Positions 4,344-64,000 are shown, counted from the stretch's first letter. The stretch: 64,000 nucleotides of DNA from Clostridium sp. 'White wine YQ' (GCF_028728205.1 NZ_JAQYUU010000001.1:421318-485317); one strand, 5' to 3'. Made by a program: numbers and translations. Notes: generated by a model from the sequence alone, not told the origin.

Positions 4344-4445
4344 ATATAAACCCTTCCTGTAGTTAAGTAATAAGTATATTATATCAGTATTGTAAGAATA
4401 AAAAAATATTTACAATATTATCATGATAGTGTATAATTTATTCAA

Positions 4446-4552
4446 ACTTATCTAGAGTGGTGGAGGGACTGGCCCAATGAAACCCAGCAACCTATAAGTT
4501 ATCATTTGACTTAGTGGGTGCTAATTCCTGCAGTGTTTAACTGGAAGATAAG
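4446..4552 (+). promoter_or_regulatory. SAM-I (S-box) riboswitch aptamer
   Basis: CTTATCtAGAGtGGtGGAGGGACTGGCCCaATGAAACCCaGCAACC ... GGGTGCTAATTCCTGCAG ... GAAGATAAGG matches the S-box consensus including the P1 pairing CTTATC/GATAAG. Confidence 0.85.
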
Positions 4553-4580
4553 GATATTATTTGGGGAAATCGCGTTATAT

Positions 4581-6036: not shown

Positions 6037-6592
6037 AAAATATTTTATTCTTTTTTAAGAAAGCTAAAATATATAGAACAATGGACAAGGAAATGTATGC
6101 AGTAATTCCTAATATACTTTTTAAGTATAGAGCATATGAATTGCTATTTATATAAATCGCAAAGAAAACAAAAGCCAACAATAAAAATGAAAATATATAT
6201 AATGATGCTCTAATACTGTTTTTATTTGTTTTACTTATTTTAATTAATTTAGGAAAACTCAAATCTGTTTTCGTTTTTATTTGATAACTTAATAAAAGAA
6301 TAAGTGAACTTGAAATAAGAATCCAACCTATCTCTTTTACGTCAAATGTTTGGACTGAGTGAATTAACTTATTAGTTATAGTAAGTCCAAAAATAAAAAT
6401 TGTAAATAAACATGTAAGTTTAAGAGAATCAAGGAAAGCTTGGGTTTCTCTCTCATCTTTTTCTTTAATAAATAACTCTACAGCAAAGTTAACTATAATA
6501 CAAATAATTGCTAGTCCTATGATTATTAAATACTTATTCATCTTCCACATCCTCCTGTAATAATTCAAAGATATCATCAACTCTTTTATCAA
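6035..6592 (-). CDS. polytopic membrane protein, co-transcribed with the XRE regulator
   Basis: 185 aa, 5-6 TM helices; overlaps the 3-prime end of the XRE gene. Confidence 0.5.
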   Translation of the reverse strand: MIKELMISLNYYRRMWKMNKYLIIIGLAIICIIVNFAVELFIKEKDERETQAFLDSLKLTCLFTIFIFGLTITNKLIHSVQTFDVKEIGWILISSSLILLLSYQIKTKTDLSFPKLIKISKTNKNSIRASLYIFSFLLLAFVFFAIYINSNSYALYLKSILGITAYISLSIVLYILAFLKKNKIF

Positions 6593-8751: not shown

Positions 8752-11037
8752 ATGCATAATGAATTTGATTATGAAGTTGAAGTTCTTCAGGAGAAAAAGA
8801 ATAGGATCAACATTGAAATAGAGAGAAAAGTTAATGAAGAAGAGGGTTTTAAAACAAAAATTTCGGATTTAAAGAAAGCTTCAAGAGGAAGTTATAGCTT
8901 AGAGCTTGAGAATACAAAAATAATATATGATATAGTAAGTAAAAATCTTAAAAATTATTCAGAGGCTACAGAAAATCCTTATTTCGGAAGAATCGATTTT
9001 AAAGAAGATAAAAGAATGCCAGAAAATTTCTATATAGGAAAGTATGGTATATACGATTCAAAAGATGGGGAAGAGATAGTAATTGACTGGAGAGCACCTA
9101 TTGCAGACCTTTACTATAGTGGTACACAAGGAGAAGCATACTATAGATCACCAGTTGGTGTAATAAACGGAAAGCTTCAATTGAAAAGAAAGTTCTTAAT
9201 CAAAGATGGTGAACTTAAAGATATATTTGATGAAGGAATAAATGAAATAATTTTAAAAGGTGAAACTGCAGATGAAGAAAATGAATTAGTAGATGAATTT
9301 CTTAAAATAAATCTTGAAGAAAGTGCAGGAAGTAAGCTTAAGGAAGTAGTTGCTACAATTCAAAAAGAACAAAACGACATTATAAGAGCACCGCTTAATT
9401 TTCCACTGATTGTACAAGGTTCAGCAGGTTCAGGGAAAACTACAGTAGCACTTCATAGACTTGCGTATTTAGTTTATAGATATAATGAGAAGATAAAAGG
9501 GGAAGATATATTAGTATTAGCACCAAATAAATTGTTCCTAGATTATATATCTGAAATACTTCCTAATCTAGGTACTTATGAAGTTAATCAAAAAACTTTT
9601 CCTATTCTAGGGAAAGAATTTTTAGGATTAAAGGGTAAGATTTATACAAGAGACGAAAAGCTAAGGGAAATACTAGAAGGGGATAGTGAAAGAGCTAAAT
9701 ATTTAAAAAACATTAGTAAAATAAAAGGCTCAATACTATTTAAAACTATATTAGATAGATTAATTACCATTTGGGAAAGGGATTCACAAAATCTAGAGGA
9801 TATTAAAATTCAGGGATTTACTCTTTATGGAGCTAATGAAATTAAAAGATTATACTTTAAAGATTTGGTACATTTCCCGGTAAATAAAAGGATAGAAGAG
9901 ATACATAAATATTTTAATAAAAAGCTTGATAATACACTGCTTAGAGTATATGAGCAGCTTGATCTTTTCTATAATTTAAAGATAAATAAAATTAAAAAGA
10001 ACGAAGAAGATTCACTAGATAGAAGAAAGAAACTAATAGAAATATACGATGAGAGAGATGAGAAAAAGAAAAATCTTAGAAATGAAGCTATTTCAAAATT
10101 AAAAGAGTATTTCGAGGCTTGGAATAGTCAAAGTGGAGAAGGACTTTATTATAGATTGTTTGAGGAAGACGAAATATTTGAAGAAGCTACTGGTGAAAAG
10201 ATTCCTAAAAACTTAGAAAAATTTATGAGAGAAGAAGTTTTAAGTAATAGGGAAAAAGAAATAATAGATGAAGATGATATTGCAGCTCTTTTATATTTAA
10301 AGCTTAAAACTGAAGGAATTAAGGATGAGAATAAATATAAACATATAGTAATTGATGAGGCGCAAGATTATTCTCCGTTAATGTTTCATGTAACTAAAAT
10401 GATGTGCCAAGGAAGTTCTATGACTATAGTTGGGGATTTAGGACAAGGAATATATAGCTATAAAGGAATTAACAATTGGGAAACCTTAATTGAAGATATT
10501 TTTAATGGAGAATGTACCTTTATATCATTAAGTCAAAGCTATAGAAGTACTATGGAAATAATTGATGTTGCAAATATTGTTTTAAATAAGCAATTAAATG
10601 CTCCAAAGCCGGCAAAGGCAGTAATTAGAAGTGGACCAGTTCCGGAAATAATTGAATATAATAATTTCAAAGACTTGGCTAAGAATATTGATGAAAAGGT
10701 AGAAGAAATAAGAAATGCAAATAAGAAATCTATTGCAATAATTTGTAAGGATTTTGAGGAATGTAAAAAGCTTAAGAGCAGAATAAAAAATTATAGTAAT
10801 TTCTCCTGGGATGTTGTTAAAGAGGGGGATAAGGAGTTAAATGTAAATAATGTAATAATACCTTCATATTTAACAAAAGGATTAGAATTTGATGGTACAA
10901 TACTTTTTAATGTAGATAGCAGTTTATATAAAGATACAGAGGAAGATAAAAAATTACTATATGTAGCTTTAACAAGAGCTTTGCATAGAGAAACTATCTT
11001 CTATAAAGGGGAATTAACACCATTACTAGAAGCTTAG
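8752..11037 (+). CDS. helD: HelD-type UvrD-like DNA helicase (helicase IV)
   Basis: 761 aa; Walker A QGSAGSGKTTVALHRLAYL; UvrD-like C-terminal block (LYVALTRA). Confidence 0.75.
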   Translation: MHNEFDYEVEVLQEKKNRINIEIERKVNEEEGFKTKISDLKKASRGSYSLELENTKIIYDIVSKNLKNYSEATENPYFGRIDFKEDKRMPENFYIGKYGIYDSKDGEEIVIDWRAPIADLYYSGTQGEAYYRSPVGVINGKLQLKRKFLIKDGELKDIFDEGINEIILKGETADEENELVDEFLKINLEESAGSKLKEVVATIQKEQNDIIRAPLNFPLIVQGSAGSGKTTVALHRLAYLVYRYNEKIKGEDILVLAPNKLFLDYISEILPNLGTYEVNQKTFPILGKEFLGLKGKIYTRDEKLREILEGDSERAKYLKNISKIKGSILFKTILDRLITIWERDSQNLEDIKIQGFTLYGANEIKRLYFKDLVHFPVNKRIEEIHKYFNKKLDNTLLRVYEQLDLFYNLKINKIKKNEEDSLDRRKKLIEIYDERDEKKKNLRNEAISKLKEYFEAWNSQSGEGLYYRLFEEDEIFEEATGEKIPKNLEKFMREEVLSNREKEIIDEDDIAALLYLKLKTEGIKDENKYKHIVIDEAQDYSPLMFHVTKMMCQGSSMTIVGDLGQGIYSYKGINNWETLIEDIFNGECTFISLSQSYRSTMEIIDVANIVLNKQLNAPKPAKAVIRSGPVPEIIEYNNFKDLAKNIDEKVEEIRNANKKSIAIICKDFEECKKLKSRIKNYSNFSWDVVKEGDKELNVNNVIIPSYLTKGLEFDGTILFNVDSSLYKDTEEDKKLLYVALTRALHRETIFYKGELTPLLEA

Positions 11038-33168: not shown

Positions 33169-33253
33169 GCTGATGTGGCGGAATGGCAGACGCAGTGGAC
33201 TCAAAATCCACCGACCACAAATCGTGAGGGTTCGAGTCCCTCCATCAGCACCA
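33169..33253 (+). tRNA. tRNA-Leu (anticodon CAA)
   Basis: Acceptor stem GCTGATG/CATCAGC, anticodon loop CTCAAAA, long variable arm, TPsiC arm GGTTCGAGTCC, encoded CCA. Confidence 0.9.
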
Positions 33254-39562: not shown

Positions 39563-41998
39563 ATGAAGGTTAAACAAAAAACTTTTTCTGTAGTTATTTT
39601 AAGTTTTATCTTCATGTTTCTGGTAACATATGCTGTATTTTATCTAGCATATTATGGATTCATAGAGAAACATAAAAAAAATGAAATAGAAGAAAGCTTT
39701 CAAACGGTAGACTATATTTTAAGCAATGAAGAAGAAAATTTGAAAAGTTCGCTTTTAGATTGGGCCGTTTGGGATGATACCTATGAATTTATAAATAATA
39801 AAAATGACGATTATATAAAATCTAACTTAGACTTTAGCTCGCTAGTTACACTGAATTTGAAAATGATGATCTTTTTAGATGATAAAGGTAATTTGGTATA
39901 TAGTAAAGAAACTGGAATTGATAAAGAAGTAGCAGAAGAGTTGAGTAATGAAATTTTACTAAAGAATAAAGAGATAAAAGATATTGGAAGTACTAAAAGT
40001 CCATTGCTTTTAGTAAAAAATAAAGCTTTTCTAGTTGCAAAGTCAAAGGTTACAAAATCAGATGATTCAGCTGATAGTAACGGATACTTGATATTTATTA
40101 GAGAAATTGATAATAAATTATTAGATTACATTCAAAAAACAGCAAAGACATCACTCACATTTAATAATATAAGTATTTCAGAAGATAAATATTACAAGGA
40201 TTTCAAAAGTTTAAATAATGAAGTTAAGTACCAAAAAGATAAATCGAGTTTTGAGGCTTATAAAGTTGAAACTGACGTATATGGTGAAAAGACTATAATG
40301 TTTTCCATAGAAACAGAACAAACTGATTATCAAGAATATTATTTTAGTATTTTTGTAATAGGAATTATTCTACAGATTTTATTAGTATTTGTTATTGATT
40401 ATATAGTTATCGACAAGCAAATATTTAAAAGACTTTCTAAATTGACTGATTTTATAGAGTATGTGGCAAAAACAAAGGATACGAGTCTCAATATTCAACT
40501 TAGTGGAGAGGATGAGCTTAATCAGCTAGCTGACTCTACTAACAGGATGTTAATGGAATTAAATAATGCCTACAAGGATATTAAAGAGAGTGATAAAAGA
40601 TTTAGAATAATAATGGAAGCTACGAGTGATGGATATTTAGATTTCTATGTGAAAAGCAGAGAAGTTTATATTAGCCCAGAATGGAAAGAAGAAATAGGGT
40701 ACGAGGGCGAAAATGGAATTGAATTATTTAAAAGTTATGTCTCTAAAATTCACCCTGATTGCATTGATAGATTAAGGGAAAAGTTCTACAAAGTAATTAA
40801 AGGTGAAGAAGATAGTTTCACAGAGGAATTTAAAATTATAAAAGAGTCTGGTGATATAATTTGGGTATCACAAAGAGGAAAGGTTTCAGAGAAAGACTCA
40901 CATGGAAAGCCAATAAGGATAGTAAGCACTTTATCTAATATAACAGACAGAAAGAAATATGAAGAAGAAATATTATATTTAAGTTTTACTGATAAGCTTA
41001 CTGGAATTAAAAATAGAGCTTATATGGAAAAGGTCTTTAGTGAATTAGATTCTAACGAAGAAGCTAAATATTTCATTATAATGGGAGATTTAAATGGATT
41101 AAAGCTAGTAAATGATTCTTTTGGACATACAGAGGGAGATAAATTGATTTATGCTGCAAGCAAAATATTAAGGGAAGCATGCAGTACCCATGAGATTATC
41201 TCAAGATGGGGTGGAGATGAATTTATTATAGTCATTGTAGATAAAGATAGAAGTTATATTTCAAAATTAATTGATGACATAAAAATTGCATGCCTGAAAG
41301 AAACAGGATATAAATTTAATATTAGCATAGCCTTAGGATATGCCGAAAAAAATGATGAATATCCTAATACTGAAGCTGTAATGTGTTTAGCTGAAAAAAG
41401 AATGTATCGTAATAAGCTTATGGAGGATAAGAGCTCTAGAAATTCTACAATAAGTTCATTATTAAGGACATTACATGAAAAACATAGTGAAACAGAGCAG
41501 CATACCATGAGAATAAAGAAATTAAGTTTAAAGCTAGGAAAGAGATTAGGATTAAGTGAAGATAAATTGGATGAACTAGGATTACTAGCTCTATTACATG
41601 ATATTGGAAAGATAGGAATACCTGAGCAGATATTAATGAAGCCTTCATCCTTAACAAAAGAAGAGTTTGATATAATGAAGACCCATACAGAAATAGGATA
41701 TAGAATTGCTAAATCAACACCTGTACTAGCACATATTGCAGATGAAATACTAAATCACCATGAAAAATATGATGGTACAGGCTATCCTATAGGACTAAAA
41801 GGAGAAGAAATTCCTCTTTTAGCAAGGATAATAAACATTGTAGATTCCTTTGATGTAATGACTCATCAGAGAGTTTACAAGGAAGCATTAAGTGTTGAAT
41901 TTGCCATTGAGGAATTAAAAAGATGTTCAGGAAAACAGTTTGATCCATATATAGTGCAAGAGTTTATTGACTTAATAAATGAAAAGAAAATATACTAG
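39563..41998 (+). CDS. membrane-anchored PAS / GGDEF / HD-GYP signalling protein (putative c-di-GMP synthase and phosphodiesterase)
   Basis: RWGGDEFIIV (GGDEF), HDIGKIGIP and HHEKYDGTGYP (HD-GYP). GGGGAGTGA RBS supports the ATG at 39563; the track start at 39521 has no RBS. Confidence 0.8.
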   Translation: MKVKQKTFSVVILSFIFMFLVTYAVFYLAYYGFIEKHKKNEIEESFQTVDYILSNEEENLKSSLLDWAVWDDTYEFINNKNDDYIKSNLDFSSLVTLNLKMMIFLDDKGNLVYSKETGIDKEVAEELSNEILLKNKEIKDIGSTKSPLLLVKNKAFLVAKSKVTKSDDSADSNGYLIFIREIDNKLLDYIQKTAKTSLTFNNISISEDKYYKDFKSLNNEVKYQKDKSSFEAYKVETDVYGEKTIMFSIETEQTDYQEYYFSIFVIGIILQILLVFVIDYIVIDKQIFKRLSKLTDFIEYVAKTKDTSLNIQLSGEDELNQLADSTNRMLMELNNAYKDIKESDKRFRIIMEATSDGYLDFYVKSREVYISPEWKEEIGYEGENGIELFKSYVSKIHPDCIDRLREKFYKVIKGEEDSFTEEFKIIKESGDIIWVSQRGKVSEKDSHGKPIRIVSTLSNITDRKKYEEEILYLSFTDKLTGIKNRAYMEKVFSELDSNEEAKYFIIMGDLNGLKLVNDSFGHTEGDKLIYAASKILREACSTHEIISRWGGDEFIIVIVDKDRSYISKLIDDIKIACLKETGYKFNISIALGYAEKNDEYPNTEAVMCLAEKRMYRNKLMEDKSSRNSTISSLLRTLHEKHSETEQHTMRIKKLSLKLGKRLGLSEDKLDELGLLALLHDIGKIGIPEQILMKPSSLTKEEFDIMKTHTEIGYRIAKSTPVLAHIADEILNHHEKYDGTGYPIGLKGEEIPLLARIINIVDSFDVMTHQRVYKEALSVEFAIEELKRCSGKQFDPYIVQEFIDLINEKKIY

Positions 41999-55490: not shown

Positions 55491-55621
55491 TTTGTACAAA
55501 AAGCCTTTTATTCAATATAAAGGTAAATAGTGAAGTATATAGTAAAATAATCGATAAATAGATAGTGCATCAAAATAGAATTTATAAAATTATTTAAGAG
55601 TAAACGAAAGGAGAAGTTATT

Positions 55622-56122
55622 ATGGAATTAATTTATTTAGGAATTTTGATAATTATAATACCTATATTAATATGGATAGCTTTAAAAGTAACATATAGAA
55701 GTATCAAAAGAAATGCTTATGGTAAGCTTATATTAAGTGTAAAGGATCATACATATGCAATTGATATTCTTGCAGGAGTGATTTTCTTATTGCTTGGAGG
55801 AAAGAATTTAATTGTAGTATTTATTGATGGAGAGACATTAATTACTCCAGGTTCATATTTGATGATGTTCTCACTGTGTTCAATTATCTATTTTGTTAGA
55901 GCAACATTTAGAATTGAAATAAGAGAAAATGGAATTCTATCAAAAAAAAGTGGTTGGACATGGGAAGAGGTAGAAAGTAGTTACATAAAAGAAACAAATA
56001 GTTCAGTAGTTATAACTTTTAAGTTTAAAAATAGTAGAAAAAAACCTACAAGTATTATGGTACATAAAAAAGATAGAATGGAAGTAGAGAGGAAGTTAGA
56101 AGAAATATTTACGAAAAAGTGA
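55622..56122 (+). CDS. membrane protein with two N-terminal TM helices and a bacterial-PH (YdbS/DUF304-like) cytoplasmic domain
   Basis: 166 aa; AAAGGAGAAG RBS; topology matches bPH_2 proteins. Confidence 0.5.
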   Translation: MELIYLGILIIIIPILIWIALKVTYRSIKRNAYGKLILSVKDHTYAIDILAGVIFLLLGGKNLIVVFIDGETLITPGSYLMMFSLCSIIYFVRATFRIEIRENGILSKKSGWTWEEVESSYIKETNSSVVITFKFKNSRKKPTSIMVHKKDRMEVERKLEEIFTKK

Positions 56123-56248
56123 TAAGTAGTAAATATTATTGTTATATTAGACAATTATTAACCAAGTGTTAAAAAATAAACATATTAAATAAAAATGTTC
56201 ATAATTTGTTATGTGATATAACAGTTAAAACTAGATGATTAAAGGACT

Positions 56249-56279
56249 GAGCAATTTAATGTTTAAATTGCTCTTTTTT
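56249..56279 (+). terminator. rho-independent terminator
   Basis: GAGCAATTTAA tgt TTAAATTGCTC TTTTTTG, a perfect 11-bp stem. Confidence 0.75.
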
Positions 56280-56364
56280 GTTAGAAAGTTAACAAAATTA
56301 AAAAATATTTACAAATTGGTTAAAATATTATAGCATTATTATGTAAGAAATTACAAAAAACCAT

Positions 56365-56515
56365 AGAAAAAGGCAAATTTATTGAAAGATAAAGACGCAA
56401 AGCCACGGGCCTACGGTATTCTAAATATGCATTTTGAAATTATTGTAATTATATTGGAGAATTATTTGTGATTGGCATATTTATACTAAGGTCGCCGGGT
56501 TACCAGAGTGGTATA
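56365..56515 (+). promoter_or_regulatory. c-di-GMP-I (GEMM) riboswitch
   Basis: AAGGCAAAtttattGAAAgataaaGACGCAAAGCCacGGGCCTA ... GGTCGCCGGGTTACCAGA matches the GEMM-I consensus: GGCAAA, a GAAA tetraloop on a 6-bp stem (TTTATT/GATAAA), GACGCAAAGCC and the 3-prime GCNGGGUUACC block. Sits 84 nt upstream of the Rhs start codon. Confidence 0.7.
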
Positions 56516-56598
56516 TTTCATTAAGATAACTTATGAAATCTATTCGCATATCTAAAATTAATTCTGCCCAAATCTATGGACTTATTAGGGGGTGTAAG

Positions 56599-59500
56599 AT
56601 GAAGAAAAACGTTCTAATAAGGGCCATATGTACTTTTCTGACTTTTTCTACTTTATTATTTTCTTTTAATGATGTAGTTGCTTATGCGGCTGAAAACTTA
56701 TCAAATCAGCCAAAGGGCGAATACTATGGAAAGGATATCAATAAGGAAAACCAAAAAGTAAAAACTGAAAATCAAACAGAAAACATTTCTACAAAGGCTC
56801 TTAGAAAACCAAGCACAATTAAACAAAAGAAGGAAGAATCTTATAGTAAGGATAAGGAAGTAGTTAGTAAAAGAACTGCAAATAGTAAAACCTATAAGAT
56901 AGATAACAAAACTGAAGTAAAAGATATTTATCTTGATAAAGTGAACTATAAAGATGCAAATGGAAATTATCAAGAGGTGGATAATACCTTAGCGCTAAAT
57001 AGCAATGGAGGATATTACGAAAATAAGGCAAACGATTATAAGGTTAATTTTCCTACTGAAATAACAAAAGATAAGGGAGTATCAGTACAAAAAGGAAATA
57101 CGTCTGTTACATTATTTCCTATGGAAGGGGACTTTTCAAGAAGTGCAGCTTCAGAAAATGCAATATTATACAATGATGTATTTGATGGAGTAGATTATGA
57201 GTATACAGCTAACCCAGATGGAGTTAAAGAGGATATTATACTTAATAGATATGTTGATACTTCTACATTTAAGTATCAAGTAAGCACTAAAGGAGTAATT
57301 CTTAAAGAAGAATTAAATTCAATAAGAGGATATGAACCAGGCAAAAAAGATCCTACCTTTATATTAAGTGCGCCTGTAATGGTTGATGCTTCAGGAAAAA
57401 AGAATAGCAATCTAACCATAAAGCTAGATAAAAAAATATTTGGTAAGGATGTTATTGCAGTAACAGTAGATGAAGATTGGCTCAAATCACCTGAGAGAGC
57501 ATATCCAGTAAAGGTTGACCCTCAAGTTAATATTTATAGTGATAGGATTAATATCGCGTCAGCGGAGGAAAATGCACCTAACACTAATACATTAAACAAT
57601 GGATATGTATATGTGGGAATGGACGATGGAGTAGCATCTGGAAATAATCAATATAAAATTAATGGGCTTCAAAAGACTAGAGCCTACGTTCAGATAAATG
57701 GTAATTTGGGAGTGGATATTCCTAAAGAGGCAACAATTAAGTCCGCTAATTTTGAAATGTATAAGTACACTAACTTTTCAAGTTCTTCAAGAGAAATTGG
57801 ATTATATAGTGTAGATGATAGTTATGATGTGAGCCAAGTTACTTGGAATCAACAGCCTAAGAATAAAACATTCTATTCTTCTGCGATGATAGATGGAAGT
57901 ATAGGTTATATTAGTTGGGATATTAAGTCATTGGTTAGTGATTGGGTAAATGGAAAAACAAATAATGGATTCCTCTTGCAGTATTTAAATGAAACCCAAC
58001 AGTGTGAAACCTTTGCAACTCAAAATAATGAATATGAATCTAGAAGACCAAAGATTGAAATCGTTTATGAGTTTGTAGATGGTGTAGATACTAATATGCA
58101 ATTTGGTGCAACAAATATTAATTTGAGGCCTATTTCTGAGCATGACAGTGAAGGGGAACTTAAAGTTGATGGAATTATAGTAGATGGATTAGTAAAACCA
58201 ACAGCTACTGTAAATTATGAATTAGATGTTGAAAATCCTGATTACAAGGGAAGTGTACAAGCTAGCTACGTTTATAAATATCCTGATGGTTCAATGTACT
58301 CAAGTATTTTTCCAAAGGCTTATGTTTATAAGGGAAAAGATAGTAACTGGCAGTCGGATAAGATATTAACTCCTAAATTAGATCAATTATACAGAATTAA
58401 GGCAACTGCAACCTTGGATGGAGAAACAAGTAGTCCAGCATACAGTGACTACTTCCAAATCTATCAAGTTCAAGCTAAGGATACTATTCCGTATATAGCA
58501 AGCTTTTATGGAGTACCTAATTCTGTAATTATGAGTGATAATAAAGTTGGAGATACTCTGCTTGTAGAGGGGAATACTCTTTTCATAAGAAATCCCAAGA
58601 AAAATGCTGGAAAGCCATATACGCCTCCATCCCTTACAGATGCTAGAAAAAAAGAAATAGATAGTGCTCTTATGGGAAGAAAAAAGCATTGTATTTATGG
58701 GTTTGAACCAATAAATTTACTAACTGGTAACTTTATATATGAAGCTGATGATGCTAGTTTAACTGACTACAATGGAGACTTTATAATAAAGAGAACTTAT
58801 AACGCAATGGAAGAAATTCATGATGGATACTTTGGAGTAAAATGGGACTTTAATTTTAATAAGTCTTTATCAGCACTTGCAGATGGAACCATAATATTTA
58901 ATCAAGGTGATGGAAGTACCATCTACTATAGAAAAAATAGTGATGGCAGCTACAGTGGACCAGTGGGAGAAAATTTAAAGCTATCCTTAGTTAATGATGA
59001 TAGCAGAAAAAATATAGGCTACGAGGTTACTGATGGTTTAACCACCTATCAATTTAATAAGATGGGACTTTTAGATTCACAAGTTGATGAAAAAGGTGAT
59101 ATTACAAAGCTTGCCTATAATGAAGATTATAAATTAACAAGTATAACTTCACCTTCAGGAAAGGTTTTTGGAATAACCTTAAATGATGAAGGAAGAATAG
59201 GCACAATAACATTACCAAATTCAAGCGTATTAAAATATAGTTATGATGGAAATGGTAACTTAGTTTCGTATATTGATGCAAATGGACATGAAACAAAGTA
59301 TCAATATGATGACAAAGGAAGAATGACATCATTTGTTGATGCCAAGGGAAATACCGTAGTAACTAATACTTATGATGAGCAAAATCGTGTAACTACTCAA
59401 ACAGATGCTCAAGGTAAGAAAATATATATGAATTATTACGACGGGTACAATGAAACAATTGATGCAAAGGGCAATAAGACACAATATTATTATGATGCAC

Positions 59501-62500
59501 AGTTTAGGATAACTAAAACTGTAAAGCCTGATGGAACTGTAGAGACAGTTACATATGATAGTAATAACAATGTAAAAACATCAACAGATGCTTTGGGGCA
59601 TACTACTACTTATGAATATGATAGTAGGGGAAATAAGACTAAAGAATATAGATATGATGGAAAAGTAAAGACTTTCAAGTATGATGACAAAGATAATCTT
59701 ACATCCGTTACTGATTTTGAGGGAAATACAACTACAATGGCATATGATAGCAAAGGAAATCTAGTAAAGGTTACTGATGCTAATAATTTAACATATGAAT
59801 ATACCTATAATAGTAAAAATCAGGTAACAACAGCAATAGATCCATCAGGAAAGAGTTATAAATACGAATATGATGGAGCTAATGTATCACAAGCTACTGA
59901 TGCGAAGGGAAATGTATATAAGTATTTTTATAATGCTATGGGTAAGGTTATATCTATAGAAGATCCTTTGGGGAAGATTACAAGAATAGCTTATGATGCT
60001 AAAGGAAATGAATTAAGCACTACTCTGCCTGACGGAGGCATAGTAGCATATACCTATGATGTTAATGATAATAAAAGTTCGGTAACTGATGGTAACAAAA
60101 ATTTATCTAAGTTTGAATATGATAGCTTAAACAGGGTGACTAAATCTACAGATCCTTTTGGTAATATAACAACCTATTTCTATGATGAAAATGGTAATAA
60201 CACTGGAGAAAAGAATCCAGAAGGGTATACTAAGACCTACCAATACGACAAATTAAATAGGCTTATTAAAGTAATTGATGGAGAACAAGGTGAGACGACT
60301 TATGATAGGGATGCTTTAGGAAATATTATATCTGTAACAGATCCTAATGGAAATAAGTCTTCGTATACTTACAATTATGCAGTAAATCAAGTTGAAAAAG
60401 TGATAGGTGCCAAAGGGCAAACCATAGTAAATAAGTATGACAATCAAGGAAATGTATTACAATCAACACTACCAGATGGTGAAGTGAAAAAATACAAGTA
60501 TGACAATCTATACAGGTTGACACAATTTACTGATGTAAACGGAGTAGTAACAGACACCACTTATGATAATTTAGGTAGAATTTCTTATATGAAGGATAGC
60601 TTAAATAGAGAATATTATTATAGTTATGATGATAATGGAAATCTTATTAGCACAAAGGATCCTTTAGGTTATAAAGTAAATTATACTTATGATGTAAGAA
60701 ATCAAGTGACTTCTGTTACTGATGAAGAGGGAAAAACTACAAAATATAGTTATACTGATACAGGTAATCTAAAATCAGTGACAGACCCTCTTGGATATAC
60801 TAAATCCTATGAGTATGATTTAAATGGAAATTTAAAGACAGAAATATCACCTAATGGGGGCAAGCAAATCTATAATTATGATGGATTAAATAGATTAACC
60901 TCTGTTAAGGATGCGCTTGAAAACATTACTCAGTATGCTTATGATAAAGCAGGTAATGTAACTAAGATGATAGATCCGTTGGGAAAAGAAACAAAATATG
61001 AATATAACGGTAATAAGCTTCAAACGAAAATCACTGATGCTTTAGGTGATGTTGTTCAAATGAAGTATGATAAAGATGGAAATTTAACTAGTGTAGTATA
61101 TCCAAATGGTGACGTAGTAACTATGGCATACGATTCAAATAATAAATTAATCTCAGAAACTGATGCAGCAGGATTGAAGAAAAGTTATAGTTATGACAAT
61201 ATGGATAGAATAGCAACTCAAGAGGATACTGCAGGAAATAAGCTCACTAATCTTTATGATGATAAGGGAAGACTTATAGAGCAAAAGGATGTAATTGGCA
61301 GAACCATAAAATATAGCTATGATATAGCAGGGAATATTACTGCTAAGACTAGCACAGATGGAAACATAACTACTTATGAATATGATAAAAGAGATAGAGC
61401 AGTTAAGGTTACTGACCCAGAGGGAAAAGTTACTACAATTTCCTATGATGGCTTGAACAGAGTAACAGGAAAAATAGAACCTGAAAATAAAAAGTATCAG
61501 TATCAATATGATGATGTAGGAAATCTAATTAATGTAATTGATCCTTTAAACAATTCAACATCCTATGCATACGATAAAAACAAAAATTTAACTCAAGTTA
61601 CAAATGCAAAGGGTGCAGCAAAAAAATATCAATACGATGCTCTAAATAGACTTATTAGTTTTGCAGATGAAAATGGCAATACAACAAATTTATCTTATGA
61701 TGCTAGAGGAAGCCTAATAAAAGTTCAAGATCCTATGAATAATACCACTCAGTATAAATATGATCCTATTAATAGATTAGAGATGAAGGTAGATGCTTTA
61801 GGATTTGGAACTCAATATCAGTATGACAGCTTAAATAATATGGTTGGGGAAATCGATGCTAAGGGAAATAAGACAAGCTATGAATATAATAAACATGGTT
61901 TGCAGACAAAGAAAATAGATCCTTTAGGTGGAACAACACAATTCCAATATGATTTAAATGATAGATTAACTACACAAATAAATCCTATGGATGAGAAATA
62001 TAGCTATTCATATGATAAAGTTCAAAGAATTACAGCTATAACTGATCCAGAAGGATATTCAAAGAGCTTTAGTTATGATGAATTAGGTAATTTAACAAAG
62101 CAATCAGATTCGGAAAATAGTGTTACAACTTATACTTATGATAAGATGCATAGACTACTATCAGAAAAGAATACTGTAGGAAATGTAACATCTTACGGAT
62201 ATAGTACTGCAGGAAATCTAAATTCTATTAAAGAGCCAAATGGCAACATGAGTTTTTATGAATATGATGCACTTGATAGAGTTAATAAAACAACAGATCC
62301 AGAGGGGAACATCACTAAGTTAGAATATGATTCCTTGGGAAATATAACAAAGGTAACTCAACCAGGAAGTAGAGATTATAAGTATACTTATGATGCGGCA
62401 AACAATCTTGAAAGTGAAACAAATCCTTTAGGGGAAGTGACTAAATATACTTATAATAAAAACAATTTGGTAGAGTCAGTTACTAACCCAATTGGTAGTA

Positions 62501-64000
62501 AAACTACTTATAAATATAATCCATTAAACTTAATTTCACAAACAACAAATCCAGTAGGCGGTGTTACTAAATATGATTATGATAAAAATCAAAATTTAGC
62601 TTCTGTAACTGATGGAAATAACAATAAAATTTCTTACGGATATGATGAGTTAAATAGATTAGTAAATGTAACAAGTCCTAAAGGAGATGAAACTAAGTAT
62701 ACCTATGATAAGTCAAGCAATCTTACATCTATGGTAAATGGTAATGGAAATGAAACTAAGTATACCTATGATAAAGTAGGAAGACTTACATCTGTTACTA
62801 ATCCCCTTGGAGAAAAAGAGAACTTTACTTATAATCCAGTAGGTACCCTTTCAAGCCATATTAAACCTGATGGAACCAAAACAAATTACGATTATGATAA
62901 ACTTAATAGGCTTGTCTCAAAAGAGTATAAAGATGCTAATGGAGACAAAGTAGAAGGTGAAGATGTAAGCTATGAATATGACATAAGTGGTAATCGTACA
63001 AAGATGATAGGGGCTGAAGGAGAGACAGACTATAAATATGACAAGATGGGAAGGCTTACTTTAGTAGACTTTGTTGGAGGAGAAAAAGTAACCTATGAAT
63101 TTGACAGCCTAGGAAGAAAATCTAAGGTTATATATCCAGATGGAAAGTATGTGAAGTATAATTATGATGCACTAGATAGATTAACATATGCAGAAAATTG
63201 GAATGGTGAAAAAACTTACTATAGCTATGATAGTGCTGGTAGAAGAAAAGAAGCCTTGCTTCCAAATGGAACTAAAGTAATTTATACTTATGATGGTGCA
63301 GATAGAATTACTAAATTAGAAAATATTAATAAAGATGGTAAGCTTATATCTAGCTTTGAATATCAGTATGATAAAGCTGGAAACATAATAAATGAAAAAG
63401 CTGTACATGAAGATGAAAGCTATGTGAGAACTTATAGCTATGATGCTTCAAATGAAATCACATCTTTTACTGAAGAAAGTCACGAAGAAGACGGAAAAAT
63501 TGAAACAAAGAAATACGATTATAGCTATGATAAAGCAGGTAACCGTATAGCAGTACAAGTAAAGGATGATAATGAAGAGGCTGAGGTTACTACCTATGCT
63601 TATAATGCAGGGGATGAACTAGTTAGTGAAAAGAGTGGAGACACTAATATAAAATATGAGTATGATAAGAATGGAAACAGACTTAAAAAGATTCGTCCTG
63701 GTCAAAAAATAGAGTATTATGAGTATGATTTAGAGGATAGATTAGTTCAAATCTCTAATCCAAAAGGTGAAGTTCTTACTTTTGGATATGATAGTGACGG
63801 AAATAGATTATTCTCAACTTATGGAGTATACTTTAAACCACAGCCAGATAAAGAAGAAAATGGCGATGGCACTTCAAGTGGTAATTCAGGTGGTAACTCT
63901 AATGCAGGGAATCCACAAAACTCTAATAACGGAAATCATTATGGTTTTGAAACAGAAAATAATCCTCATCAAGAAGTAGCTGCAGGAGGAACCACAACTA
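56599..64000 (+). CDS. giant secreted Rhs/YD-repeat protein (polymorphic-toxin family), 5-prime part only (more than 2467 codons)
   Basis: GGGGGTG RBS and a signal peptide (MKKNVLIRAICTFLTFSTLLFSFNDVVAYAAEN). No stop in frame 1 from 56599 to 64000; codons were checked at about 40 positions. The Rhs core entry motif (HCIYGFEPINLLTGNF) lies near residue 700, followed by dozens of YxYDxxGN repeats. Absent from the ORF track because it is open at the window edge. Confidence 0.85.
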   Translation, partial: MKKNVLIRAICTFLTFSTLLFSFNDVVAYAAENLSNQPKGEYYGKDINKENQKVKTENQTENISTKALRKPSTIKQKKEESYSKDKEVVSKRTANSKTYKIDNKTEVKDIYLDKVNYKDANGNYQEVDNTLALNSNGGYYENKANDYKVNFPTEITKDKGVSVQKGNTSVTLFPMEGDFSRSAASENAILYNDVFDGVDYEYTANPDGVKEDIILNRYVDTSTFKYQVSTKGVILKEELNSIRGYEPGKKDPTFILSAPVMVDASGKKNSNLTIKLDKKIFGKDVIAVTVDEDWLKSPERAYPVKVDPQVNIYSDRINIASAEENAPNTNTLNNGYVYVGMDDGVASGNNQYKINGLQKTRAYVQINGNLGVDIPKEATIKSANFEMYKYTNFSSSSREIGLYSVDDSYDVSQVTWNQQPKNKTFYSSAMIDGSIGYISWDIKSLVSDWVNGKTNNGFLLQYLNETQQCETFATQNNEYESRRPKIEIVYEFVDGVDTNMQFGATNINLRPISEHDSEGELKVDGIIVDGLVKPTATVNYELDVENPDYKGSVQASYVYKYPDGSMYSSIFPKAYVYKGKDSNWQSDKILTPKLDQLYRIKATATLDGETSSPAYSDYFQIYQVQAKDTIPYIASFYGVPNSVIMSDNKVGDTLLVEGNTLFIRNPKKNAGKPYTPPSLTDARKKEIDSALMGRKKHCIYGFEPINLLTGNFIYEADDASLTDYNGDFIIKRTYNAMEEIHDGYFGVKWDFNFNKSLSALADGTIIFNQGDGSTIYYRKNSDGSYSGPVGENLKLSLVNDDSRKNIGYEVTDGLTTYQFNKMGLLDSQVDEKGDITKLAYNEDYKLTSITSPSGKVFGITLNDEGRIGTITLPNSSVLKYSYDGNGNLVSYIDANGHETKYQYDDKGRMTSFVDAKGNTVVTNTYDEQNRVTTQTDAQGKKIYMNYYDGYNETIDAKGNKTQYYYDAQFRITKTVKPDGTVETVTYDSNNNVKTSTDALGHTTTYEYDSRGNKTKEYRYDGKVKTFKYDDKDNLTSVTDFEGNTTTMAYDSKGNLVKVTDANNLTYEYTYNSKNQVTTAIDPSGKSYKYEYDGANVSQATDAKGNVYKYFYNAMGKVISIEDPLGKITRIAYDAKGNELSTTLPDGGIVAYTYDVNDNKSSVTDGNKNLSKFEYDSLNRVTKSTDPFGNITTYFYDENGNNTGEKNPEGYTKTYQYDKLNRLIKVIDGEQGETTYDRDALGNIISVTDPNGNKSSYTYNYAVNQVEKVIGAKGQTIVNKYDNQGNVLQSTLPDGEVKKYKYDNLYRLTQFTDVNGVVTDTTYDNLGRISYMKDSLNREYYYSYDDNGNLISTKDPLGYKVNYTYDVRNQVTSVTDEEGKTTKYSYTDTGNLKSVTDPLGYTKSYEYDLNGNLKTEISPNGGKQIYNYDGLNRLTSVKDALENITQYAYDKAGNVTKMIDPLGKETKYEYNGNKLQTKITDALGDVVQMKYDKDGNLTSVVYPNGDVVTMAYDSNNKLISETDAAGLKKSYSYDNMDRIATQEDTAGNKLTNLYDDKGRLIEQKDVIGRTIKYSYDIAGNITAKTSTDGNITTYEYDKRDRAVKVTDPEGKVTTISYDGLNRVTGKIEPENKKYQYQYDDVGNLINVIDPLNNSTSYAYDKNKNLTQVTNAKGAAKKYQYDALNRLISFADENGNTTNLSYDARGSLIKVQDPMNNTTQYKYDPINRLEMKVDALGFGTQYQYDSLNNMVGEIDAKGNKTSYEYNKHGLQTKKIDPLGGTTQFQYDLNDRLTTQINPMDEKYSYSYDKVQRITAITDPEGYSKSFSYDELGNLTKQSDSENSVTTYTYDKMHRLLSEKNTVGNVTSYGYSTAGNLNSIKEPNGNMSFYEYDALDRVNKTTDPEGNITKLEYDSLGNITKVTQPGSRDYKYTYDAANNLESETNPLGEVTKYTYNKNNLVESVTNPIGSKTTYKYNPLNLISQTTNPVGGVTKYDYDKNQNLASVTDGNNNKISYGYDELNRLVNVTSPKGDETKYTYDKSSNLTSMVNGNGNETKYTYDKVGRLTSVTNPLGEKENFTYNPVGTLSSHIKPDGTKTNYDYDKLNRLVSKEYKDANGDKVEGEDVSYEYDISGNRTKMIGAEGETDYKYDKMGRLTLVDFVGGEKVTYEFDSLGRKSKVIYPDGKYVKYNYDALDRLTYAENWNGEKTYYSYDSAGRRKEALLPNGTKVIYTYDGADRITKLENINKDGKLISSFEYQYDKAGNIINEKAVHEDESYVRTYSYDASNEITSFTEESHEEDGKIETKKYDYSYDKAGNRIAVQVKDDNEEAEVTTYAYNAGDELVSEKSGDTNIKYEYDKNGNRLKKIRPGQKIEYYEYDLEDRLVQISNPKGEVLTFGYDSDGNRLFSTYGVYFKPQPDKEENGDGTSSGNSGGNSNAGNPQNSNNGNHYGFETENNPHQEVAAGGTTT

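Follow-up and report, generated by a model that had tools for sequence, protein, structure and literature searches.

Genome analysis of Clostridium sp. 'White wine YQ' led to a cyclic di-GMP (c-di-GMP) aptamer in the leader of a giant gene of the Rhs/YD-repeat family. The DNA under study is a stretch of 64,000 nucleotides (nt) (GCF_028728205.1, NZ_JAQYUU010000001.1:421318-485317), called the window here, and positions are counted from its first letter. On sequence grounds the leader clearly holds a genuine member of the c-di-GMP-I class (RF01051, also named GEMM-I), and the same aptamer stands in front of orthologous genes in related genomes. We are moderately confident that it belongs to a functional class I c-di-GMP riboswitch, which would control in cis the gene of a probably Sec-exported, WapA-like Rhs toxin. 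Control would probably be translational, through a competition between P1, the closing helix of the aptamer, and X:Y, a long-range helix that reaches a segment just 5' of the Shine-Dalgarno sequence (SD).

The aptamer was searched for with the covariance models of Rfam 15 over the whole window. RF01051 was matched at 56362-56507 on the plus strand with 74.5 bits (E-value = 8.9e-13), against a gathering score of 35, and the match covers the complete model (positions 1-87). A permissive covariance search of 56200-56700 returned nothing besides RF01051, and neither cmscan nor a custom model built from ortholog leaders found a second c-di-GMP-I copy in the window. The GEMM-I identity proposed in an earlier note on this DNA is thereby confirmed, and the sequence blocks that the note listed were all in place in a reading of 56000-56900, namely GGCAAA (56372-56377), the 6-base-pair (bp) helix P2 (56378-56393) with its GAAA loop (56384-56387), GACGCAAAGCC (56394-56404) and GGTCGCCGGGTTACC (56490-56504), all on the plus strand. 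P3 was placed by the cmscan alignment at 56401-56419/56483-56501 (plus strand). In the same alignment the ligand-contact bases are kept: G20 is G56372, the intercalating A47 is A56399 and C92 is C56503, corresponding to positions 11, 38 and 83 of the model. A G rather than an A at position 20 separates c-di-GMP aptamers from cyclic GMP-AMP (cGAMP) variants. Concerning covariation, 96.7% of the P2 and P3 cells are paired among 13 Rhs-associated aptamers, in an alignment which was fitted to the RF01051 model and so favours the structure somewhat, and 16 of the 22 pairs carry compensatory changes; none of 500 shuffles reached the observed value, while slid controls were 28-45% paired. A chance match was ruled out by the Rfam score together with the conservation in orthologs.

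The window aptamer differs from its relatives mainly in a 63-nt insertion in the apical loop of P3 (56420-56482, plus strand; 62 inserted nt by cmscan). It opens with an 8-bp coaxial extension of P3, in which AAAUAUGC (56423-56430) pairs with GCAUAUUU (56475-56482), and it is restricted to this genome among the 13 Rhs-associated aptamers, the other 12 being 96-108 nt long against 166 nt here. A repeated mobile element was considered and ruled out, as neither half of the insertion has a second copy in the window with up to three mismatches allowed. The insertion also contains a promoter-like sequence, TTGAAA-17-GAGAAT (56434-56462), at chance level (12 sites against 9.9 expected); if active, it would give a leader without the 5' half of the aptamer.

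These differences weigh against a working switch in this particular genome. The window aptamer is the most divergent in comparison with every ortholog (74.5 bits against 83-91). Its candidate P3 receptor for the GAAA tetraloop of P2 (56384-56387) reads CCUACG…CUAAGG where orthologs have CCUAAG or CCUAAA with UAUGG or CUAAGG, and CC-AGAG in place of CC-UAAG after C93 costs it two P1 pairs. The insertion, the receptor change and the weaker P1 could therefore mean an impaired or retuned aptamer, with the gene effectively constitutive in the X:Y state; the leader would then be unresponsive, or responsive only at far higher c-di-GMP. We consider this decidedly unlikely. The pocket nucleotides and every pair of P2 and P3 are intact, the 8-bp helix of the insertion does no more than lengthen the variable tip of P3, the score remains at twice the gathering value, and the downstream open reading frame (ORF) is uninterrupted for 2467 codons.

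Conservation of the aptamer with the gene was studied by running the custom model over 160 homolog loci from genomes and metagenomes, in which the genome representatives do not include the window's species. The nearest proteins are those of C. tunisiense TJ, UBA4548 and C. folliculivorans, with 78-80% identity in the best segment. The aptamer lies directly 5' of the orthologous gene in six Clostridium-lineage genomes (C. tunisiense, C. folliculivorans, the metagenome-assembled genome (MAG) UBA4548, MAG bin.52, C. polynesiense and Ca. C. radicumherbarum), scoring 83-91 bits where Rfam was run. The conserved blocks, by whose presence or loss in orthologs the earlier note had meant to judge its match, are kept as GACGCAAAGC and GGGYURCC in the leaders of C. 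tunisiense, C. folliculivorans, C. polynesiense, Ca. C. radicumherbarum and several MAGs. The pairing also occurs on four assembly or metagenome contigs (L002, L091, L003/L092 and L005, of which L005 is truncated 5'); a score of 89.8 bits was obtained for an SRA contig with the aptamer before an ortholog. Nine other Clostridium-lineage loci have the aptamer in the corresponding place, and their proteins are 41-80% identical to that of the window. The custom model accounted for L091 and L005, as well as for the Lachnospira/Eubacterium MAGs L020 and L021, Gottfriedia solisilvae (L037) and a related metagenome contig (L107). At the remaining ~145 of the 160 loci (Eggerthellaceae, most Lachnospiraceae, Enterococcus, Streptococcus and others), some of which are cut upstream, the aptamer was not found. 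The neighbourhood 5' of the promoter differs between loci, which argues that leader and gene travel together as a unit.

Some of these loci have features of their own. In L003, whose protein is 43% identical to that of the window, the best match is RF03167 ('c-di-GMP-I-GGC'), and the aptamer directly follows a PAS-GGDEF-EAL gene. Before the P2-closing GC, the aptamers of L003/L092 (4911-7223), L020 (9155-9256) and L037 (9416-9511) read GGC in place of GAC. The Gottfriedia locus contains three GEMM-I matches (435-540, 6174-6279 and 9416-9511) within 10 kb before its Rhs gene, and each precedes a different gene, either for a small secreted or membrane protein or the Rhs gene itself; the match at 9416-9511 is followed by a canonical terminator and then by ~380 nt to the ATG.

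In the window, the upstream gene (55622-56122) ends in an intrinsic terminator at 56249-56283 (plus strand), an 11-bp stem GAGCAATTTAA/TTAAATTGCTC (site 56249-56273) followed by a T-run, so that the rhs leader is a separate transcription unit. A candidate sigma-A promoter, TTTACA-17-TAGCAT (56308-56336, plus strand), has 9 of 12 matches, which alone is at chance level, and a predicted transcription start near 56343-56345. Its TTTACA -35 element recurs at the same relative place in L002 and L013, and the homology between loci starts there. From the start of the aptamer to the ATG at 56599 there are 237 nt on the same strand, and the aptamer ends 92 nt 5' of the ATG. Between aptamer and ATG (56508-56598) the terminator scan found no intrinsic terminator, and its sole site in 55500-57000 is the one at 56249-56273, 5' of the promoter. 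The scan thus agrees with the earlier note on the lack of a terminator before the ribosome-binding site (RBS), and we concur that the mechanism of such a leader is not obvious.

The leader contains alternative partners for both strands of P1. The 5' strand, ACCAUAG (56360-56366, plus strand), pairs through ACCAU with GUGGU (56508-56512) and through G56366 with C93 at 56504 (G14:C93). P1 is short everywhere, ACCAU:GUGGU of the window amounting to -5.9 kcal/mol, and its strands change in step, as read by eye, to AAAU:GUUU in C. polynesiense (L014) and CCGA:UUGG in Gottfriedia (L037). Its 3' strand takes part in hairpin H (56506-56545, plus strand), which rests on folding and conservation: AUUUCAU (56515-56521) pairs with AUGAAAU (56533-56539), the hairpin already noted earlier and found to be real, and at its base GAGUGG (56506-56511) pairs with CUAUUC (56540-56545). 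Since this base uses the 3' strand of P1, H competes with P1, and the alternative partner of GUGG at the foot of H (CUAUUC/UUCAC) is conserved. A hidden terminator in H was ruled out, as no U-tract follows it and the terminator scan was negative.

The 5' strand of P1 has its alternative partner further downstream. The same bases make up X, CCAUAGA (56361-56367, plus strand), the 5' arm of the long-range helix, whose partner is the Y segment UGCCCAAAUCUAUGGA (56565-56580, plus strand), an anti-P1/anti-aptamer strand that ends 7 nt 5' of the SD. Specifically, UCUAUGG (56573-56579) pairs with X, and UGCC (56565-56568) with GGCA (56372-56375) of the pocket. The translation initiation region (56581-56628, plus strand) comprises the SD AGGGGG (56587-56592) and the AUG at 56599, and folding gave a hairpin in which CUUAUUAG (56581-56588) pairs with CUAAUAAG (56614-56621), so that codons 6-8 are joined to the SD at its 5' edge. 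Both arms of this SD hairpin change together in L002, to UUAUUUGGA and UCCAAUAA, as read from the sequence. Beyond it, CCAUA (56624-56628, codons 9-10) is able to pair with UAUGG of a free Y, lengthening the SD hairpin.

The X:Y helix reaches -13.0 kcal/mol, against -7.1±2.1 for shuffled downstream sequence, and 3 of 300 shuffles attain this value; it is present in the minimum free energy (MFE) fold of the window leader. In 8 of 9 clade loci the best duplex of X with downstream sequence is found at one and the same position, ~-38 to -19 relative to the AUG. All 13 of 13 bp form in L002, and in L002, L014, L015 and L091 the helix takes in the GG of GGCAAA (G20/G21) and so excludes the ligand-binding fold. 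Two points reduce the weight of this evidence: the common position of Y does not amount to nine independent observations, given the kinship of the clade sequences, and the CCAUA partner of Y sits in conserved coding sequence (Arg-Ala-Ile). We also considered that X:Y might be the true P1 and hairpin H an insert, because the aptamer-forced MFE fold keeps X:Y in L011, L012 and L002; this is disfavoured, as X:Y consumes J1/2 and G20-G21 in the four loci named above and a proximal P1 exists and covaries. A long-range pairing seen by eye in L003 (AAAUUUAU/AUAAAUUU) ranked below another duplex in the objective test and was not counted.

The mechanism that we propose is a competition of the short P1 (ACCAU:GUGGU plus G56366:C56504) with two alternative pairings, its 5' strand together with G20-A23 of the pocket going to Y, and its 3' strand to CUAUUC at the foot of H. 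Without ligand, X:Y would form and dismantle the aptamer pocket. Binding of c-di-GMP would lock the pocket and P1 and release Y, and Y with the preceding pyrimidine stretch could then pair with the SD and the start of the coding region (UAUGG:CCAUA extending the SD hairpin, UGCCC facing GGGUG). Translation would fall at high c-di-GMP, in a thiM-like OFF relay where AAGGCA of the aptamer acts as an SD mimic; on this last step we lean to OFF with moderate conviction. In thiM-type switches, too, a segment further downstream is sequestered by a strand of the closing helix as long as ligand is absent, and ligand frees that segment to pair near the SD. The likeness is one of logic alone, since ligand and fold differ, the released segment of the window pairs with the SD weakly, and the relay of the window is modelled.

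It is rather unlikely that the regulation, though real, acts on elongation or stability of the transcript instead of on initiation of translation, for instance through Rho-dependent termination in the leader or the 10-kb ORF, or through nuclease access governed by X:Y. The absent intrinsic terminator would fit such control, as would the great length of the gene, which is exposed to polarity by any drop in translation, and terminators do follow the same aptamer in other lineages (L020, L037 and L107). Against it, just 7 nt separate Y from the SD and the closest relatives keep the SD hairpin, a geometry typical of translational platforms, and no rut-like C-rich, G-poor tract was noticed, though no search was aimed at one.

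For the polarity of the proposed translational switch, the bound state was modelled with P2 and P3 imposed and with the pocket and the strands of P1 barred from pairing, and the opening energy of the SD-AUG region (-14 to +4) was compared with that of the free model. The change from free to bound was +2.4 kcal/mol in the window, +2.9 in L011, +3.8 in L012, +4.6 in L014, +6.2 in L015, +6.6 in L091 and +9.1 in L013, with 0 in L002 and -3.0 in L003. Dinucleotide-shuffled linkers shifted by just +0.5 to +2.0 kcal/mol, and the native linker exceeded nearly all shuffles in five of six loci tested; the native shift was reached by 3 of 30 shuffles for the window, 1 of 30 for L014 and 0 of 30 each for L012, L015 and L013. 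An excess of this kind would be the signature of an anti-SD/anti-anti-SD relay, and the modelling leans towards OFF in the Clostridium clade. SD accessibility by base-pair probabilities had been uninformative for the four closest leaders (0.2 in both states) and was replaced by these opening energies. The suggestion of the earlier note that toxin deployment is tied to the sessile, high c-di-GMP state finds no support here and may have to be reversed, as the models of the Clostridium-clade leaders lean the other way, with the SD harder to open when the aptamer is locked.

Several observations speak against an OFF relay. The modelled effect is small in the window, where 3 of 30 shuffles reach it and the predicted pairing of the SD is ~80% whether the aptamer is free or locked, and it is absent in L002 and of opposite sign in L003. 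The region from -35 to -15 opens more easily in the locked state (by -3.5 kcal/mol in the window, -9.1 in L011, -6.3 in L012, -8.4 in L002 and -4.9 in L015), and once freed could serve as a ribosome standby site, giving the opposite polarity. Additionally, the Lachnospira/Eubacterium ortholog (L020/L021) carries an 11-bp terminator whose 5' arm consists of C92 and the 3' strand of P1, which is an ON-type design; in the free ensemble this terminator forms with a probability of 1.00, which drops to 0 when P1 is forced, and 13.4 kcal/mol must be paid for the bound fold. Apart from these points, in the Gottfriedia type (L037/L107) a terminator lies ~25 nt after the aptamer.

The same riboswitch with the same competition of P1 and X:Y might therefore have ON polarity, toxin translation rising in the sessile state, a possibility that we hold as real but doubtful. 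In the ligand-free state an imperfect duplex of 20-25 bp, formed by the 5' half of the aptamer with -45 to -19, would stack on the SD hairpin and leave no single-stranded standby site, or would invite RNase III; c-di-GMP would withdraw the 5' half and free an AU-rich landing pad of 40 nt. The more open standby region and the ON design of the Lachnospira/Eubacterium ortholog fit this possibility, and contact-dependent toxins work best in dense communities. However, the SD-AUG region itself is harder to open when locked in most clade loci, beyond what shuffled linkers give, and the pyrimidine stretches beside Y are able to pair with the SD in L015, L014, L002 and L091. Most class I switches of C. 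difficile are likewise OFF, six of the seven responsive ones against a single ON (PMC6200980), and in V. cholerae it is low c-di-GMP that induces the riboswitch-associated TfoY and killing by a type VI secretion system (T6SS) (PMC4858559). Taken together, the two species provide precedent for either sign.

The rhs gene is present in the window with its 5' 7.4 kb (56599-64000, plus strand), an open frame from the ATG which encodes at least 2467 amino acids (aa) and runs off the end. Domain searches showed a DNRLRE domain (aa 323-488), a LysM-like domain (aa 622-663), DUF6531 (aa 703-777) and then RHS/YD repeats, with 38 stretches of PF05593 in Pfam (E-value = 2e-268) and 25 stretches of TIGR01643 YD in NCBIfam. 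The closest PDB sequences are Rhs cores of T6SS effectors and teneurins, including 8h8b and 8qjd (E-value = 3e-75). The N-terminus, MKKNVLIRAICTFLTFSTLLFSFNDVVAYA|AE, reads by eye as a Sec-type signal peptide, and no PAAR, LXG, VgrG or T6SS domain was found in the Pfam and NCBIfam searches of the window protein. The apparent Sec signal and the lack of PAAR, LXG and VgrG together point to a WapA-like, Sec-dependent Rhs protein.

Of the giant Rhs polymorphic-toxin gene announced in the earlier note, the Rhs/YD array stands, while the toxin C-terminus is off the window and is deduced from orthologs. The last 500 residues in the window align to 1969-2454 of the 3257-aa ortholog of Ca. Clostridium radicumherbarum (L015), so the expected protein would go on for another ~800 aa past the window, and toxin tip and any immunity gene lie outside it. 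The orthologs L015, L001 and L011 carry the core-end motif …RYYxxxxGRFxxxD…NNPxxxxDPxG (…LRARYYEPESGRFLTRDSY…NRYAYALNNPMMYTDPSGH), and the proteins of L001 (MAG UBA4548) and L011 (C. tunisiense) are 95% identical up to ~110-130 aa from their ends and unrelated beyond. The ortholog tips gave no Pfam match beyond PG_binding_1 repeats in L015. Small ORFs lie 3' of the ortholog rhs genes (L015 19790-20122, L001 19753-20127, L011 20171-20695) and have no Pfam match; their position is no more than suggestive of immunity genes. The label 'polymorphic toxin' for the window gene comes from these orthologs rather than from the window itself, and by such comparison it appears well supported.

Further observations concern the architecture of the gene. 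An Asn/Gly/Ser-rich low-complexity linker breaks the Rhs region at ~63880-64000, shortly before the window end, and its ortholog equivalents are ~250 aa long and include a helix, amphipathic or hydrophobic, ahead of the last YD repeats. In C. tunisiense (L011 18427-20156) the main Rhs ORF stops immediately after …RFLTRGQG and is followed by an ORF that repeats the core end, with a toxin tip unlike the one in the 95%-identical UBA4548 gene; this second ORF looks like a toxin module that has been displaced or orphaned, or like an artefact of assembly. Many database homologs are annotated as two separate ORFs, such as 460 + 2749 aa (L001 11383-11498; also L002, L003, L005, L006, L007 and L009), possibly from MAG errors or a bias of the protein search to shorter fragments, while the copy of the window is unbroken.

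Compared with known systems, the aptamer class is already known, and it is the class of target gene that is new for c-di-GMP-I; a terminator-less platform and a P3 insertion are unusual without being unprecedented. In RefSeq genomes, the riboswitch itself will already have been marked by automatic annotation. Vc2 of V. cholerae tfoY, the type example of RF01051, reportedly masks an RBS distant from the aptamer. It has the same fold and pocket bases as the window aptamer and also ties c-di-GMP to interbacterial killing (PMC4858559), but the window riboswitch sits directly on a toxin gene of a Gram-positive bacterium and not on a regulator of a secretion machine, contains the 63-nt insertion, and has an unrelated platform sequence. 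The C. difficile class I elements (Cd1/Cdi-1-3 flgB, Cdi-1-12 zmpI, Cdi-1-2 CD2797) are likewise ahead of genes for surface or secreted proteins, but none of the class I targets listed in PMC6200980 is Rhs/YD, and Cd1 acts by transcription termination (PMC6366702), unlike the terminator-less window leader. The earlier note had described the clostridial class as preceding flagellar, pilus and adhesin genes; the pilus and two adhesin genes of C. difficile, however, have class II and not class I riboswitches (PMC6200980).

The WapA proteins of B. subtilis and S. suis share with the window protein a signal peptide, putative in the window protein, a wall-binding N-terminal part and the YD/Rhs shell, and its orthologs add the core-end DPxG motif, the variable toxin tip and the small downstream ORF. 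The window protein differs from WapA in its N-terminal module (DNRLRE/CBM96-like and DUF6531), and the ortholog tips in their lack of Pfam matches. The S. suis WapA proteins are reported to mediate competition (PMC12704120). No riboswitch is known to us for wapA and none turned up in the literature searched, and in full-text literature, the coverage of which is incomplete, no paper was found that links a c-di-GMP riboswitch or GEMM to Rhs, YD-repeat, WapA, polymorphic or interbacterial toxins.

Elsewhere, the window encodes at 39563-41998 an 811-aa CHASE4-PAS-GGDEF-HD-GYP protein, a candidate c-di-GMP-metabolising enzyme in which CHASE4 is an extracytoplasmic sensor domain; the domain search bore out the PAS-GGDEF-HD-GYP order given earlier and added CHASE4, which the earlier note lacks. 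The presence of such an enzyme fits the proposed riboswitch. An S-adenosylmethionine (SAM)-I riboswitch (RF00162, 79.7 bits) was located at 4445-4554 and a tRNA-Leu(CAA) gene at 33169-33253.

Regulation of Gram-positive Rhs/WapA toxins is poorly understood, and the c-di-GMP riboswitch regulons described so far consist mainly of motility, pilus, adhesin and protease genes. We give about even chances to a broader reading, in which c-di-GMP directly gates the production of Sec-exported Rhs toxins at the RNA level in Gram-positive anaerobes. In three Firmicutes families the pairing would then have persisted or arisen anew, on non-homologous platforms and possibly with opposite polarity. By modelling, Clostridium would use the long-range anti-P1/anti-SD relay and Lachnospiraceae an ON terminator. 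The association is noteworthy to specialists and easy to test, although not paradigm-changing. Different platforms on orthologous genes permit a comparison of polarity, and a terminator-less platform with a conserved long-range helix before the SD is a useful case for translational control by class I. Cultured strains exist, such as C. tunisiense TJ and Gottfriedia solisilvae, and a riboswitch on a contact-dependent toxin gene in the Clostridium clade, Lachnospiraceae and Bacillaceae would make lifestyle-dependent use of weapons testable by a simple reporter. If the broader reading is true, c-di-GMP riboswitch signalling would have a core output that had gone unrecognised, namely antagonism between bacteria.

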